DNA from: Myxococcota bacterium
GTDB lineage: Bacteria > Myxococcota_A > UBA9160 > UBA4427
Direction: 5' to 3'
NCBI GenBank assembly: GCA_965223565.1
Contig: CBDCWV010000016.1
Span: 828,518 to 892,517 of the forward strand
Length of the DNA: 64,000 bases
The notes beneath the pieces are model-generated. The model saw nothing but the letters and a program-made list of their open reading frames with translations, was not told where the DNA came from and ran no database searches. Both the position numbers and the translations under genes were made by a program. Shown piece after piece: positions 20,956-27,467 of the stretch; position 1 is the first letter of the stretch; every line of letters starts with the position of its first letter.

Positions 20956-20979
20956 CTCGTGTGAAGCGATTCACACGAG
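20956..20979 (+). terminator. Perfect 10-bp stem with a GCGA tetraloop, 17 nt after the AKR stop (terminator-like, no U-tract)
   Basis: CTCGTGTGAA (20956-20965), GCGA, then TTCACACGAG (20970-20979). The two arms are perfectly complementary. Confidence 0.4.
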
Positions 20980-21086
20980 CACGAGATGTCTCGATCTCTC
21001 GCGATCGATCGACGGACAGATTTCGAGCCGCGGCTCGACTCTCCTCTCGCAACCGGCCGACGCGTCGGCCTCGAAAGGAGAATCCC

Positions 21087-22868
21087 GTGTCCAGGAACAC
21101 TCGTCCGATCCCCTACTTCTCGGCTCTGCTCGCGACTGCAATCACGATGCTGATGGCGTCGGCGGCTGCCGCGCAATGGACGCTACGGACGACGAGCGCG
21201 CCGATCGCGACGCAGTCGACCGGATACGCCAGCGACTCGGGCACGACGAATACCTCCTGGGGCGCCTCGTGGACGCAGCCCGGACTCTATTTCGATCCCT
21301 ACGAGGGCTGTGCGGACGATGCGACGGTCGAGTCCCTGCAATTCGCGACGCCGGACCCGGACGATCTGTTGCTGCAGGCGGACGAGCCCTGGGCCGCCGG
21401 AGGAGTGCTGTGGATCGACCTGGTCGTTTCGCGATGTGCGCGTGTCGCCTCCTTCGAATACGGCGGGATCGAGATCTGGGGTCATCAGGGCGGCATCGAT
21501 TCGCCGTCGTACTCGGCCCATCTCGTGTCGACGACGACGGCCACGAATACCTCGACGCTTCGGATCGAGCTCCGTCATCCGACCGTCGGAACCGGTCTCC
21601 GTCAGGAGATTCGCGTCGGACTCGAGCAGCCCAAGACGGGCGCAGCCGGCAACCGGTCGTTCCCCGTCAACTGGGTTTCGGAGGTCGGCGGCGGCACCGA
21701 GATCACGATCCTCGAAGAAGAGGTGCGCAATTCGATGCTCGCATCGATCTACGCGAGCTTCGGGGACGATGCGCGCGCGCCGATCGACGACGAGGGGAGT
21801 TGGTTCATTCGCGATCCCGCCCTGCGGGCCTGCGCGGCGTGGGACCTGGACGACGACGACTGCTTGCGTGTCGAGATCGTCGAGAACGAGGGCATTCGTT
21901 TCTCGATGGCCATGAAGATGGCGATCGACAATTTCTGCGACCCCGACATCGTGGCGTCCGGCACGATCGCATACGAACGGAACGGGACAGGGTTCGCGCC
22001 CGTCTGGGTGGACGACCTGAGCGTCGACATCGAGATTCCTGCCCTCTGCAAGCTCCTGACGGGGATCGTCATCCCGATCATCGCTCAGGAGGTCGCGGAA
22101 GAATTCGTCGTCGACCGGGTCAAGGCCCAGATCGAGCCCATGCTCGATCAATCTCCGGATTGCGGTCTCGGATGCAGCTACGCGAACGATCCGCTCTACC
22201 TCGATGGGGAGATGGTCGTCCCGATCGATTTCGATTTCGCACACGTCACGATCGACGTGCCCTACCGCGGGCGCAACCCCGACCATACCCATTGGGGTGC
22301 GAATCTCTTCATGGCAGAGGGCGAGCCCGTCCTGCTGATCGGGTCGGGAAGTGCGCGACTCTGTGGCGGGCAGAGCGAGTCCTACCAGCACTGCGATCCG
22401 ACCCATCCCGTTGGAGTCAGCGGCCTCGAGAACTTCCGATCGAGCGTGCCGTCCGTCCCCGATCCCTGGTGGCTCGGGAACCAGCAGTGGGTTCACAACG
22501 CGTTTCGCCAGGCGCTGCGCGACGAGATGGTGTTGCCGGATCGATTCCTCGAGGAGCTTCCGGCGCCCTTCGAACCCGTCGGTGCGCTCCTGACGAAGTC
22601 GCTCGGTTCGAGCCGAATCCGTAGCGTGACATCACCCTGCCGTGTGCCGGCGCCGAGCCAGCCCCGATTCCTGGGCTTCTCACCGAACGAGCGCTCGGAT
22701 CGGGTCCTCGGAACCGGAAGCCAGCAGGTCACGATGGTCTTCCTGGACCAGCTCGGTGCGATCGCGGACGGAATTCCAGTCTGCCCGTTCGCCGGCGAGC
22801 TCGTGCCGCTCGTCCAACAGACCGGCAGCGAGACGAGCTTGGCGGCGGAAACGCTGGCCGAGTTCTGA
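21087..22868 (+). CDS. Hypothetical secreted protein (593 aa, Cys- and Asp-rich); no family recognised
   Basis: The GTG at 21087 is preceded by AAAGGAGAA. The signal-peptide-like N-terminus is VSRNTRPIPYFSALLATAITMLMASAAAAQW. It lies in frame within ORF 20961..22868. Confidence 0.6.
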   Translation: MSRNTRPIPYFSALLATAITMLMASAAAAQWTLRTTSAPIATQSTGYASDSGTTNTSWGASWTQPGLYFDPYEGCADDATVESLQFATPDPDDLLLQADEPWAAGGVLWIDLVVSRCARVASFEYGGIEIWGHQGGIDSPSYSAHLVSTTTATNTSTLRIELRHPTVGTGLRQEIRVGLEQPKTGAAGNRSFPVNWVSEVGGGTEITILEEEVRNSMLASIYASFGDDARAPIDDEGSWFIRDPALRACAAWDLDDDDCLRVEIVENEGIRFSMAMKMAIDNFCDPDIVASGTIAYERNGTGFAPVWVDDLSVDIEIPALCKLLTGIVIPIIAQEVAEEFVVDRVKAQIEPMLDQSPDCGLGCSYANDPLYLDGEMVVPIDFDFAHVTIDVPYRGRNPDHTHWGANLFMAEGEPVLLIGSGSARLCGGQSESYQHCDPTHPVGVSGLENFRSSVPSVPDPWWLGNQQWVHNAFRQALRDEMVLPDRFLEELPAPFEPVGALLTKSLGSSRIRSVTSPCRVPAPSQPRFLGFSPNERSDRVLGTGSQQVTMVFLDQLGAIADGIPVCPFAGELVPLVQQTGSETSLAAETLAEF

Positions 22869-22944
22869 GGCGAGCGACGGGTGCGCCGAAGAGCCGCGCG
22901 CTCGCCTCTGCCCCCAGGGGGCAACCGACCCTTCAGTGCGATAG

Positions 22945-22968
22945 AGATAGTGTCGATCGACACTATCT
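22945..22968. promoter_or_regulatory. 24-bp perfect palindrome, a candidate operator 20 nt upstream of the gene that starts at 22989
   Basis: AGATAGTGTCGATCGACACTATCT. All 12 pairs were checked base by base. An extra GATAG half-site lies at 22940-22944, giving GATAG-A-GATAG...CTATC. Confidence 0.6.
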
Positions 22969-22988
22969 GTGTTAGCCTGAGAGGCACC

Positions 22989-23498
22989 ATGGCCTATCTC
23001 GTACGGCGCGACGCGGACGCGATCGAGATCCGCGAGAGTCGGTCGACGCCGCGCGGCCCGCGGTCGCGTCGGCTGACGAGATTTCGCGGCGCGCTCACGC
23101 CGGCGGTGCTCGCGGCGGCCGCCGCGAACGCGAGCCGACCCCTCGATCCGCATGCGCTCGTCGAGCGGGCGGAGTCGCTGGGCATTCCGGTCGACGTAAG
23201 AGCGCCAGAGCGGGAAGCCCGCGCGCTGCTGGCGCGGCTGCGACGCGCGGATCCGATCGATCCGAGGATGGCGAGCCTGCTCGCACGCGCCCTGGACGGC
23301 GTCGCGCAGGCTCCGCTTCCCGACACGCTCGCCGAGGTGGGCGAGTGGATCGGCGCGACACCGGCCGAGCGAGGTGCGGCGCTTCGCGACCTGCTCGACA
23401 CCTACGGTCGCATCGCGGCCTCGCGACCCACGCGCAGGAAACGACCCGCGCGGACCTTCCCGCGCTTCTCGTCCGTGGAGACGGCGGTCGCCTCCTGA
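22989..23498 (+). CDS. Hypothetical 169-aa protein, first gene of the palindrome-controlled pair (candidate antitoxin/regulator)
   Basis: The ATG at 22989 has GAGAGG upstream: MAYLVRRDADAIEIRESRSTPRGPRSRRLTRFRGALTPAVL... The stop TGA (23496-23498) overlaps the ATG (23498-23500) of the next gene. Confidence 0.6.
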   Translation: MAYLVRRDADAIEIRESRSTPRGPRSRRLTRFRGALTPAVLAAAAANASRPLDPHALVERAESLGIPVDVRAPEREARALLARLRRADPIDPRMASLLARALDGVAQAPLPDTLAEVGEWIGATPAERGAALRDLLDTYGRIAASRPTRRKRPARTFPRFSSVETAVAS

Positions 23499-24088
23499 TG
23501 GCGACGGCGCCATCCGAGCCCTCCCTCTCACAGCCCTCCCTCTCACAGAAGGTGCTGTCGATCGAGTCGACCTTCCGCGCGAGCGGAATTCCGCACGCCT
23601 TCGGCGGGGCGATCGCCCTCGCCTACTACGCGACCCCACGTGGCACGATCGACATCGACGTGAACGTCTTCCTACCGGCCGATCGGGCCGGCGAGGTCCT
23701 CGACGCACTGGCTCGCCTGGGCGTCGAGGCACCTTCCGAGCGCGAGGCCACGCGCCTGCGTCGCGACGGTCAGACGCGCATCCACTGGGGTGCCTCGCCG
23801 ATCGACCTCTTCTTCTCCTACGACCCGCTCCACGATGCCTGCCTGACACGACGGCGCGCCTTCCCGTTCGGGGAGAGCGAGACGATCCACGTCCTCTCGG
23901 CCGAAGACCTCGCCGTCTTCAAGGTCGTCTTCGATCGCGAGAAGGACTGGCGAGACCTGGACGAGCTCACCTTCTCGATGGGTGACGAGCTCGACCACGC
24001 GTGGATCGAGACCTGGCTCGAGCGCATCGTCGGACGCGAGGATGCGCGATTCGATCGCTGGAATGCGCTCCTCGCGCGCCGCGACTGA
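23498..24088 (+). CDS. Minimal nucleotidyltransferase-fold protein (Pol-beta superfamily; AbiEii/MNT-like)
   Basis: FGGAIALAYYATPRGTIDIDVNVF fits the hG[GS]-x(9-13)-[DE]h[DE]h NTase signature. A later DLFFSY supplies a third acidic residue. LSAEDLAVFKVVFDREKDWRDLDEL is also present. 196 aa. Confidence 0.7.
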   Translation: MATAPSEPSLSQPSLSQKVLSIESTFRASGIPHAFGGAIALAYYATPRGTIDIDVNVFLPADRAGEVLDALARLGVEAPSEREATRLRRDGQTRIHWGASPIDLFFSYDPLHDACLTRRRAFPFGESETIHVLSAEDLAVFKVVFDREKDWRDLDELTFSMGDELDHAWIETWLERIVGREDARFDRWNALLARRD

Positions 24089-24097
24089 GGCGAGGGG

Positions 24098-24778
24098 CTA
24101 GCGGCGGCAACGCGCAGAGGGAGAGGTGACGACCCGTGCCGCACCGGCGAGCGACAGCAAAGGGATCAACAGCAGCGGATGGGCGCCCGGCACGCTCGCG
24201 GGCACGCCCGTTACGCGCAGCGTCAGGACACCGGGAACCGAACGATCTTCGACGATCGTGTAGCCCGCAGGCGCGACGAGATTCGGCGTACCGGAGACAC
24301 TCCCTCCACTGATCGTGGCGAAGCTCCAGGCATCTCCCAAGGAGGGAGTGTAGTCTGCGACGTCGAGCTCGAGCGTCGGGCTCGCGCCGACGTACGCGAC
24401 GAATAACGCCTGGATCTGACCCAAGCCAGCGGCCCCGTTCGCGCTCGGTCGAAGCCGCAGCGTTCCCGCGCCATGGATCGTCACACTATTCGGGACCACC
24501 ACGTTCTGGCTGGAGAGGACGAGCGTGCCAGCCGACGGTTGACCGATGTTGAGCACGTTCGCGTTCGCGCCGGGCGACTGAACCGTCACGACGTGCGCGA
24601 TGTTGACCTGCTCGCCCAGTCCGGCGTCGGGCGGTGCGCCCTTGTCCCAGGTGCTGGCAGTGTTCCAATCACCATTCTGGACGGAAGTGACGAAGGTACC
24701 ACCCGCAAATACGACCGGCGGACCTCCCAGCAGTAGAGCCGGCGTCACCAGGAGACACAGGATTCGAATCGCGCGCAT
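24098..24778 (-). CDS. Secreted protein with a C-terminal TM-plus-basic sorting-tag-like tail (non-canonical, PEP-CTERM-related?)
   Basis: The signal peptide is MRAIRILCLLVTPALLLGGPPVVFAGG. The SD GAGAGGAG lies upstream of the ATG (complement of 24776-24778). The C-terminus is ...VPASVPGAHPLLLIPLLSLAGAARVVTSPSARCRR. Confidence 0.65.
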   Translation of the reverse strand: MRAIRILCLLVTPALLLGGPPVVFAGGTFVTSVQNGDWNTASTWDKGAPPDAGLGEQVNIAHVVTVQSPGANANVLNIGQPSAGTLVLSSQNVVVPNSVTIHGAGTLRLRPSANGAAGLGQIQALFVAYVGASPTLELDVADYTPSLGDAWSFATISGGSVSGTPNLVAPAGYTIVEDRSVPGVLTLRVTGVPASVPGAHPLLLIPLLSLAGAARVVTSPSARCRR

Positions 24779-24964
24779 GCAACGTACTCCTCTCAGCAAG
24801 AAGAAGGCAACGACATCGGACGGCAGCAACCTCTTCTACGACCTTCCCACCCTGCCGGAAAGCGCTTCCCAGATCAAGCAGAGACCGACCCGACGAGCAC
24901 GCCGATGCAGACGTTGCTCCCGCTTGCGGTCGCGAAGACCGCCGAAGTCTCGTCGCCGAGCTGC

Positions 24965-25783
24965 TCAGGGCGCGTCGAGGATGGCTCTCAACGCATTGAT
25001 ACGGCGGCTCAGATCCCGCCGGGCGGGCGTTCCGCGCAAGTGACTCAGCTGCACCGAGGCGAGATCGAGGTGACGTCGCGCCTCCTTCTCGCGTTCGAGT
25101 CGGGCCGAGAGCTCCGCCATCTGGACTCGCCATTCGGGTCCGTCCCCGACCACGGATTCGAGGCTCGCGAGGCGCTCGAGCGCTCGCTCGAATCTCCCGT
25201 GCGCGCCCTCGAGCTCGATCGCGAATTGCTGGAGCTGGGGGATCATGCCCAGCTTGTCGATACCGCGATCGAGGATTCCGAGCGCCCGGTCGACATCGGC
25301 GTTCTCGCCTGATGAGAGGAGCTTCGCGGCCGCAATGTACAGACCCGGATTCGGTCGAGGGGTCGTCGCGAAGACTTCCTCGTAGTCCGCGACGGCCGCG
25401 GCCACATCCCCCAGATCCGCGTGGACCCGCGCGCGCTGTTCGCGCGCCCGCGTGTGTCGCGGAAAACGCTCGAGAAATTCGTCGAGACGGGCCTTGGCGA
25501 GCGCGAGCTTGCCCATGCGATGGTGGAGGAGACCGAGCTCGTAGGCGACGGCGATCGGGTCACCCAGTCCTTCCGCCTCGCGAAGATCGGCCATCGCGAG
25601 CGCGTATTGGCCGTCGTGCGAGTACAACGCGCCGCGCGCAACGCGGAGTCGTTGATCCGTCGGCCGCGCATCGATCTGACGTGTGAGGATCTCGATCTTC
25701 TCGAGCGAGGCCGGGTGGGCGAGCCCGTACGATGCGTCCAGCAGCAGCACACCGAGAACGATCGTCGCGAATCGTCCCGCCAC
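24965..25783 (-). CDS. TPR-repeat protein (secreted/periplasmic)
   Basis: This is the frame of ORF 24965..26167: ...RVARGALYSHDGQYALAMADLREAEGLGDPIAVAYELGLLHHRMGKLALAKARLDEFLERFPRHTRAREQRARVHADLGDVAAAVADYEEV... There is no ATG near the hydrophobic N-terminus (VAGRFATIVLGVLLLDASYG). I propose the GTG at 25783, but the start is uncertain. Confidence 0.6.
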   Translation of the reverse strand: MAGRFATIVLGVLLLDASYGLAHPASLEKIEILTRQIDARPTDQRLRVARGALYSHDGQYALAMADLREAEGLGDPIAVAYELGLLHHRMGKLALAKARLDEFLERFPRHTRAREQRARVHADLGDVAAAVADYEEVFATTPRPNPGLYIAAAKLLSSGENADVDRALGILDRGIDKLGMIPQLQQFAIELEGAHGRFERALERLASLESVVGDGPEWRVQMAELSARLEREKEARRHLDLASVQLSHLRGTPARRDLSRRINALRAILDAP

Positions 25784-25853
25784 GCCTCGAAGAGGCTGTA
25801 GGCGATCGCGATCACCGCAGCCCGCTCGGCGCGAGCCGCGGCAATCGATCGAC

Positions 25854-27467
25854 CTAATCGACGTCACGACCGTAGTAGCGCTTCTTGTGCCGGGGATGGC
25901 GACGACTGCGCTTGATCGTGAACTCGTCGAGCACTTCGCCATTGACGTCGATGAAGCGGGACGTGAGCTGGCGCCGGCCAGCGTCGACGACGACGGATCC
26001 CTTGACGGCGATGCTGAAGTGGTGCGCGGGGTGCTGGAGCCAATCGGAACGCGTGCAGCCGAGCTGGGGCTCTTCTCCGGTCTCCGGGTCGATTGGACAC
26101 GGATCGAGCTCGTCGGCCTTGCCCGAGCTGCCCGCCACGGTGTAGACGACCTTGTCGTCATCGCCACTTCCCTTGCTCACCTGGAAGTACTTCTCGGAGC
26201 CCTGTCCCGTCGCTGGCTCGCCCGCGTCGTTGAGCTCGGCATGCTGCGCGGGATCGAACGTGTCGGAGAGTCCCTGGTGGCCGTTCAGGTAGTAGGAGCG
26301 CTCGTAGGAATGCGCGTGGCCTCCGTAGACGACATCGACACCGTAGTCCTCGAAGACCGGCGTGAACTGCTCTCGCATGTCGATCTCGCGCTGCTCCCAA
26401 TCGGAGTTGTGGTTCTCGCCTTTCGAGTAGGGCGGGTGGTGGAAGATCACGATCGTCCAATCCCGACGGTTGTGCGAGAGATCGGATACGAGCCAGCTTC
26501 GCATCGCCTCGCGTTGGTCGTCGTCGGCGTTCGAGAGCTGTGCGTCCAGGCTGACGAGATGCACGTTCCCGTAGTTCATCGAGTAGTACTGCTCGGTTCC
26601 GCTCGGAACTCCACCCTGACTCCCATCCCAGGGAAGGCTGAAGATCCCGAGGTATGGCAGACCGCTCCCGTCCGGACCGGGTACGGGCTCGCCCGAGCTG
26701 CAGTCCGCCGAACCGATATAGGAGAGGGGGTCGGAGGATCCACTCACACCCCCGATGAAGGTAAAGAAGGACCCGGGCGGCAGACCGACGAAGGCACTGA
26801 GGTCGAAGCAACCGCCTCCCATCTCGTGGTTGCCGATCGTCGGCCAGACGGCTGCCTTGTTCATGATGTTCGGGTAGATGTCGAAGAAGGCGCCCTGCCA
26901 CTGCTCGTCGGTCCCTTCGAGATAGGCATTGTCGCCGAGCAGGACGAAGAGGTCGACGGGCTCCTTGCCCTGGTTGTACGTCAGGAATCCCTGTTTCACC
27001 TCCTCCGCTTCACCGAGGTGTGTGAACTCGCCCGTGAAGGGGCTCTGCTCCGTCTGGGTTCCCGAATCGCCGACCAGCCAGATATGCGTGTTGCCGTCGC
27101 GTGGAGTCCGATTGAATCGCGGCGCCGTTCGAAACCGCTGCTCGGGATCGAACGCGTGAGGACCCGGATCGCCGAGGATATAGAAGTAGGTGCGATCTGG
27201 ACGGAGATGTCTCAGCCGGGCCTCCATATGGCCGAGCTCCGTCTCCGTCGCGTCGACGCAGACCGGCCACCAGCGGAGCTTCAGCAGCGCCGGCCACCGC
27301 GAATAACAAACTCGGTCGGCGTCGCCCCCGCGCCACTTCACGATCGCGCTATGCGCTCCGACCTGCTGCAGGAACAATCGTTCGGGCGGCTGCGAACCCG
27401 TCGCGATTCCTGCAAGCAAGAGCATCGAGGCACAGATGGCCGAAACGAGCGTTCTCGTCCAATTCAT
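25854..27467 (-). CDS. Purple-acid-phosphatase-like metallophosphoesterase (secreted)
   Basis: MNWTRTLVSAICASMLLLAGIATG is the signal peptide. An FN3-like N-domain follows. Metallophosphoesterase motifs are present: WLVGDSG, LLGDNAY, GNHE, VIFHHPPYS and GGHAHSYERS. Confidence 0.85.
   Translation of the reverse strand: MNWTRTLVSAICASMLLLAGIATGSQPPERLFLQQVGAHSAIVKWRGGDADRVCYSRWPALLKLRWWPVCVDATETELGHMEARLRHLRPDRTYFYILGDPGPHAFDPEQRFRTAPRFNRTPRDGNTHIWLVGDSGTQTEQSPFTGEFTHLGEAEEVKQGFLTYNQGKEPVDLFVLLGDNAYLEGTDEQWQGAFFDIYPNIMNKAAVWPTIGNHEMGGGCFDLSAFVGLPPGSFFTFIGGVSGSSDPLSYIGSADCSSGEPVPGPDGSGLPYLGIFSLPWDGSQGGVPSGTEQYYSMNYGNVHLVSLDAQLSNADDDQREAMRSWLVSDLSHNRRDWTIVIFHHPPYSKGENHNSDWEQREIDMREQFTPVFEDYGVDVVYGGHAHSYERSYYLNGHQGLSDTFDPAQHAELNDAGEPATGQGSEKYFQVSKGSGDDDKVVYTVAGSSGKADELDPCPIDPETGEEPQLGCTRSDWLQHPAHHFSIAVKGSVVVDAGRRQLTSRFIDVNGEVLDEFTIKRSRRHPRHKKRYYGRDVD

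Follow-up and report, generated by a model that had tools for sequence, protein, structure and literature searches.

The 24-bp palindrome AGATAGTGTCGATCGACACTATCT at positions 22945-22968 of the window, i.e. the whole 64-kb stretch of DNA that was analysed, is probably the autoregulatory operator of a mobile two-gene operon, here called A-B, and would be bound by the gene A product or by an A-B complex. Its outer half-sites form an inverted repeat, TAGTG...CACTA, which was found in the promoter of the same module in about 60 unrelated genomic contexts, and on sequence comparison the window palindrome is the best copy of this repeat. The features on which this proposal is built are as follows.

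22945-22968, no strand: palindrome AGATAGTGTCGATCGACACTATCT, 24 bp, perfect; the proposed operator O1
22948-22965, no strand: conserved core TAGTGTCGATCGACACTA, with the outer half-sites TAGTG (22948-22952) and CACTA (22961-22965)
22989-23498, + strand: gene A, 169 aa, starting MAYLV; the proposed DNA-binding antitoxin/repressor
23498-24088, + strand: gene B, 196 aa, a Pol-beta-type nucleotidyltransferase; the proposed toxin

The palindrome in the window

A direct check of the sequence confirmed that AGATAGTGTCGATCGACACTATCT is its own reverse complement at 12 of 12 pairs, as a previous sequence-only reading of this DNA had claimed; the letters from 22940 to 22968 are GATAGAGATAGTGTCGATCGACACTATCT. 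The same reading had described an AT-rich element inside GC-rich DNA, which agrees with a G+C content of 42% for the palindrome vs 66% for the window. With a half-length of 12, AGATAGTGTCGATCGACACTATCT is the longest perfect palindrome of the 64-kb window, the next longest having a half-length of 9. This runner-up, TCGCGGCGGCCGCCGCGA (23110-23127), is a perfect, GC-only palindrome of 18 bp located inside the Ala-rich coding stretch of gene A and is probably a compositional accident.

When the window was simulated 200 times with a first-order Markov model, 7 runs (3.5%) contained a perfect palindrome with a half-length of at least 12, i.e. the length alone is unusual, not extreme, and not decisive. 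The case for a palindrome that is more than chance therefore rests on its context and on the related loci, and the earlier statement that a chance origin is unlikely is not secured by length alone and draws its support from comparison with those loci. Within the window, the 22-mer of the palindrome (allowing up to three mismatches) and TAGTG-N8-CACTA (up to one mismatch) each occur a single time. The palindrome is located 20 bp upstream of the gene A ATG (22989).

The A-B module

Genes A and B were delimited by GC3 profiling and homology. The gene B ATG overlaps the gene A stop (TGATG), and the net charge of the products is +10 for the basic gene A protein and -10 for the acidic gene B protein. 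A total of 259 gene A homologues was found, almost all starting MAYLV; of the 120 listed, nearly all have a length of 167-169 aa and share the Met-Ala-Tyr start. Therefore, a longer gene A beginning at the GTG at 22881, which would have made the palindrome part of the coding sequence, was rejected.

Across homologues ranging from 75% to about 36% identity, A and B remain paired, B always being the next gene after A, and the pair was found in MAGs labelled Myxococcota, Deltaproteobacteria and Chloroflexota as well as in metagenomes. The flanking genes were different in every A-B locus inspected, and downstream of the gene B stop we found neither a conserved element nor terminal repeats marking a mobile element. 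Considering that the neighbours differ and that nothing is conserved after the B stop, the promoter would travel with the genes, and A-B, judging from these comparisons, behaves as a horizontally mobile two-gene module carrying its own promoter.

Upstream of the pair in the window lies an unrelated, co-directional ORF (20961-22868, + strand) of 635 aa with good coding statistics, which ends 77 bp before the palindrome and for which no Pfam or NCBIfam match was found. On the other side, 24098-24829 (- strand) encodes a 243-aa protein of no family, whose N-terminus resembles a signal peptide and whose C-terminal tail is hydrophobic and Arg-rich, perhaps of PEP-CTERM type, and is adjoined by a gene for a TPR protein (24965-26167, - strand) with a weak match to the PEP-CTERM system protein PrsT.

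No match to gene A was found in Pfam, NCBIfam, PADLOC, PHROGs or the PDB sequences, searched with the single sequence or a profile. The family is small, with 293 clusters (50% identity) in a set of 1.84 billion representatives, and searches of plasmids and viral contigs returned no gene A. Conservation within the protein is highest in the Arg-rich N-terminal 33 residues (YLVxRxGDRxEIRESRSTPRGPRSRQLARF), with the invariant motif EIRES..T..G.RS. For residues 1-72, AlphaFold predicts a three-stranded beta-sheet followed by two helices (pLDDT 92.4, pTM 0.79), and the C-terminal part is predicted to be helical, with lower model confidence. Foldseek gave no fold match for the gene A models, and the N-terminal domain showed no fold similarity to the solved N-terminal domains of AP2, lambda Int and Tn916 Int. 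Searches of gene A with Pfam, NCBIfam, a PDB profile and Foldseek revealed no known DNA-binding domain, and those with Pfam and Foldseek none of the usual antitoxin folds (RHH, HTH, AbrB, Phd/YefM). As no known DNA-binding domain was detected, the argument for DNA binding by gene A is one of context and co-variation only.

The window gene B gave sub-threshold matches to NTP_transf_5, DUF6036 and AbiEii, the latter with 14.9 bits vs a cut-off of 22.5. Across its family, 25 of 30 members match AbiEii at E<=0.01 (best 9.7e-6). When compared with the PDB, the family profile matched one solved structure, MenT1 of M. tuberculosis (8an4/8an5/8rr5, 196 aa), over the full length and with E=9.7e-4, so that this relationship is at the edge of significance. 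The gene B residues T50, D52, K142 and D153 are invariant in the family alignment and correspond to T39, D41, K137 and D152 of MenT1, i.e. the residues mutated in PMC10435456. On the basis of these alignments, gene B is a nucleotidyltransferase remotely related to MenT1 and AbiEii. MenT toxins add nucleotides to tRNA acceptor ends (PMC10435456), and gene B probably encodes a tRNA-modifying toxin. The roles of B as toxin and of A as antitoxin were assigned by gene order and homology only, and the reverse assignment could conceivably apply.

Conservation of the dyad among related loci

The comparison comprised the 63 loci with enough upstream sequence. In 53 of them, the 100 nt preceding gene A contain the motif TAGT[GT]-N3-16-[CA]ACTA, and most of the remaining loci differ from it by one base. 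All 55 occurrences of the motif in 308,778 bp (the window plus the loci, with the duplicate locus L002 counted) lie upstream of gene A, i.e. the background is zero. Three statements of the sequence-only reading can be judged by these counts. Its placement of the palindrome over the core promoter and the 5' end of an operon is borne out, the dyad being in the same place in the 53 loci. The REP-like element that it had named as an alternative is rejected, with a single copy in the window and the motif restricted to gene A promoters in the 309 kb. As for the dimeric-repressor operator, a conserved dyad at the promoter of its own operon and nowhere else in the 309 kb speaks for it, and binding and repression are what we infer from this pattern.

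In the most distant clade, the flanking DNA is unalignable or random, yet TAGTGG and CACT-ATGGC are invariant, giving 14 invariant dyad and start-codon positions. Clades differ in the bases at the inner arm positions but preserve their complementarity: position 6 is GC, TA or CG, position 7 is CG, TA or GC, and the clade variants are TGTC/GACA, TGGC/GCCA and TGGTA/TACCA. These operator variants track the protein clades of gene A. Within the window's clade, hardly any variation is seen in the left arm, and degeneracy is frequent in the right arm; therefore, the perfect symmetry of AGATAGTGTCGATCGACACTATCT is the extreme of a range and not the conserved state.

The spacing between TAGTG and CACTA also depends on the clade, being N8, N9 or N12 when L030, L033, L035, L037, L040, L042-L044 and L046 are compared with L049-L075 and with the window's clade. 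This is awkward, as such variation is hard to reconcile with one rigid dimer geometry. The type of leader likewise switches by clade, from ribosome-binding-site-led to apparently leaderless.

Promoter geometry and proposed mechanism

The dyad is consistently positioned on core promoter elements, in three arrangements. One clade combines clear sigma-70 hexamers, a TTGACA-like -35 and a TATnnT -10, with a GGAGG ribosome-binding site; here the dyad takes up the 16-17 bp spacer between the two hexamers, and a second dyad often comes after it. The distant Chloroflexota-like clade has a dyad that brackets a TAnnnT -10, located 9 nt before the ATG in 17 of 17 aligned promoters (19 of 19 with two duplicate loci included). 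The right arm of this dyad extends over the ATG, so that the mRNA would have essentially no leader. Finally, in the window's clade the dyad TAGTGTCGAnnGACACTAT is found at -41 to -24 from the ATG; behind it come a conserved (A/G)TGnTAnnn element and, before the ATG, a further 10 nt (alignment A2). The window itself has two candidate -10 elements.

22970-22978, + strand: candidate extended -10 TGtTAGCCT (TGnTAnnnT), 4 bp after the palindrome; TA nearly invariant and TG frequent in alignment A2
22964-22969: weaker alternative -10 TATCTG, inside the right arm

A sigma-70 consensus scan of the window promoter found no full -35/-10 promoter. From the alignment we infer an extended -10 promoter with transcription starting about 3-4 nt before the ATG, and the relatives suggest that the leader of the transcript is very short or absent. 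GAGAGG was considered as a conserved Shine-Dalgarno sequence and rejected, since it is not conserved in the window's clade. Relative to the start so placed, the palindrome would cover roughly -40 to -17, and a protein bound there would consequently exclude RNA polymerase.

The mechanism that we propose begins with a dimer of the gene A protein, which would bind the TAGTG...CACTA dyad via the conserved N-terminal beta-sheet domain. The dyad would occupy the -35/spacer region directly upstream of the likely extended -10 TGtTAGCCT, in front of a probably almost leaderless mRNA. Once bound, the A dimer or the A-B complex would keep RNA polymerase from the promoter, resulting in negative autoregulation as in AbiE and MenAT3/4, and the helical C-terminal part of the gene A protein would neutralise the gene B toxin. 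More tentatively, it is possible that gene A founds an undescribed antitoxin-repressor family, in which the Arg-rich N-terminal beta-sheet domain would recognise TAGTG dyads through a new, sequence-specific DNA-binding fold. Such a family would keep a minimal MenT1-like tRNA nucleotidyltransferase toxin under control and probably neutralise it, and would represent a fourth, transcriptionally autoregulated partner class for MenT/AbiEii toxins.

Sequence around the palindrome

Two further elements are located on the left side of the palindrome.

22940-22944, + strand: extra GATAG, a direct repeat of the start of the left half-site, occurring again at 22946-22950
22910-22922, + strand: hairpin GCCCCCAGGGGGC, with CCTTCAG at 22930-22936; both recur upstream of the operator in the closest relatives (alignment A2)

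The sequence-only reading had noticed that a GATAG precedes the palindrome, which is correct, and had taken it for a third half-site that suggests cooperative binding. In the 13 closest promoters, the 9 nt before TAGTG are unconserved and lack GATAG (alignment A2). Cooperative binding through a third GATAG is therefore unsupported, and the extra copy at 22940-22944 is probably fortuitous. Where relatives do possess a second site, it is a full second dyad on the ATG side of the first; at the corresponding side, the window has at most a weak remnant, i.e. GTG...CAC around the -10.

In most close relatives, a CCCC..GGGG-type hairpin and (C)TTCAG are found at similar offsets despite differing flanking genes. 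As a significant structure the hairpin was rejected, its folding energy being no better than that of shuffles (z about 0). The element at 22910-22936 may insulate the module as a terminator, mark its left edge or serve as a further binding site.

Other explanations of the dyad

The dyad could be a true operator that is bound by a host regulator encoded elsewhere, or one at which gene A acts as an activator. Such a role for a host protein would suit a gene A without a recognisable DNA-binding domain, and the centre of the site, about 28 bp upstream of the inferred start, is at a position also used by spacer-binding activators. We nevertheless regard both versions as unlikely, because the dyad is kept across differing neighbourhoods and phyla (with Myxococcota and Chloroflexota labels), because the motif is absent from all other DNA of the 309 kb, and because the operator variants follow the gene A clades, which fits a binder encoded in cis. 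An activator is further opposed by the spacer, which is of the optimal 16-17 bp in the clade with clear hexamers, unlike that of MerR-type activator promoters.

Alternatively, the palindrome might be transcribed as part of a leader and act as a stable RNA hairpin, i.e. as a terminator or attenuator of read-through from 20961-22868 or as a translational or processing element. The region 22900-23000 does fold well as RNA (-43.4 kcal/mol, z = -3.9), the palindrome forming a stem of 10 bp, and the upstream ORF is co-directional and ends only 77 bp away. The palindrome is, however, followed by GTGTTAGCC and not by a U-tract, there is no terminator-like site in 22500-24300, and 22700-23200 has no Rfam 15 match at E<=1. 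The related loci make the hairpin very improbable: an mRNA of the distant clade could not contain both arms, the left one preceding the -10 and the right one overlapping the ATG; the stem is frequently reduced to 5 bp among close relatives; and the upstream gene differs or sits on the other strand. In addition, the mismatches between the arms show no G-U preference on the coding strand, with 14 of G-U type on the + strand, 17 on the - strand and 70 others.

The exact sequence TAGTGTCGANNGACACTA was also sought in a genome collection of 596 Gb, which gave 31 sites, only two of them upstream of gene A relatives, and no second exact site was found on contigs bearing gene A. Some of the other sites have a context of their own: L096, L097, L099 and L102 (Prolixibacteraceae / Sunxiuqinia) belong to an unrelated multi-copy repeat, TAGTGTCGACCGACACTA, in a conserved context of about 50 nt, and L098 (Kineosporiaceae, an actinobacterium) has the exact TAGTGTCGATCGACACTA followed by a second TAGTGACA-type repeat, in both cases with no gene A nearby. 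Finally, the palindrome could have arisen by chance, or be one copy of a dispersed repeat (REP/MITE-like or restriction-related, CGATCG/GATC), and play no part in the operon. This reading could appeal to the 3.5% of composition-matched 64-kb simulations that give a palindrome this long and to the 29 exact TAGTGTCGANNGACACTA sites in unrelated genomes without gene A, but is already largely refuted and hardly credible, given that these 29 sites are spread across other phyla and are about as many as chance predicts for 596 Gb, that the palindrome is unique in the window and the dyad recurs at the same promoter and is absent elsewhere, and that the central CGATCG/GATC is not conserved, relatives having GAAAG, GATAG or others.

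Significance of the proposed operator

If the palindrome is the autoregulatory operator of A-B, this is in itself unsurprising, promoter palindromes being ordinary in toxin-antitoxin operons. The value would lie in the access that it gives to the gene A family, which is compact and uncharacterised and has a confidently predicted fold without a structural match. The DNA target of this family should be readable from about 60 co-evolving promoter-protein pairs, which would amount to a testable protein-DNA recognition code. Its partner is a minimal MenT1-like nucleotidyltransferase, from a toxin family that currently attracts attention in M. tuberculosis and phage defence, and autoregulation of A-B would contrast with MenAT1, which is reported to lack transcriptional autoregulation.

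Comparison with known systems

AbiE, MenAT3 and MenAT4 consist of a COG5340 AbiEi-type antitoxin and a DUF1814 nucleotidyltransferase toxin, and are autoregulated through inverted repeats in the promoter that are bound by the antitoxin (PMC7319586, citing Hampton et al. 2018). The A-B operon resembles them in having two genes, the first antitoxin-like and the second a nucleotidyltransferase, in the two-part structure of the first protein, with a putative DNA-binding N-terminus and a helical C-terminus, and in the inverted repeats of its own promoter, including the two dyads of some A-B relatives, as in Prv2827c. Negative autoregulation by the antitoxin, as proposed here for A-B, would follow the same logic. 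Unlike the AbiE/MenAT antitoxins, gene A has no sequence or fold similarity to AbiEi/COG5340 and no winged helix-turn-helix, being predicted as beta-beta-beta-alpha-alpha, and membership of AbiE/MenAT therefore fails on the antitoxin. Gene B, with 196 aa, is much shorter than a typical AbiEii and falls below the Pfam AbiEii cut-off, and the TAGTG/CACTA operator sequence is not taken from the AbiE/MenAT systems.

By toxin similarity, the closest system is MenAT1 (MenA1 Rv0078B / MenT1 Rv0078A; PDB 8an4, 8an5), in which MenT1 has the same size as gene B (196 aa) and the antitoxin gene is likewise upstream. The antitoxin, MenA1, is a helical peptide of 68 aa that possesses no DNA-binding domain, and MenAT1 has been reported to lack transcriptional autoregulation (PMC10435456, PMC11375011). 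The MenA1 chain of 8an5 was not retrieved by the gene A search even at E<=10. Gene A differs from MenA1 in its length of 169 aa and is unrelated to it in sequence, and the A-B promoter, unlike MenAT1, possesses a conserved dyad.

The operators of classical type II toxin-antitoxin systems are palindromes that overlap the -35 and -10 and are bound by antitoxin dimers. A-B is similar to these systems in the palindrome on the core promoter, the presumed regulator gene in first position, the translationally coupled genes and the mobility of the module, and is dissimilar in that the presumed DNA-binding domain of gene A matches none of the usual antitoxin folds. With regard to the HEPN-MNT systems (type VII; HEPN partner with Rx4-6H), gene A has no HEPN match in Pfam and no invariant histidine among its invariant columns. 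Since gene A is neither an AbiE/MenAT-type antitoxin nor similar to MenA1, the A-B locus is best described as a MenT1-like nucleotidyltransferase with a partner family that is previously undescribed, apparently novel in its fold and, by virtue of the conserved operator, predictable in its DNA target.
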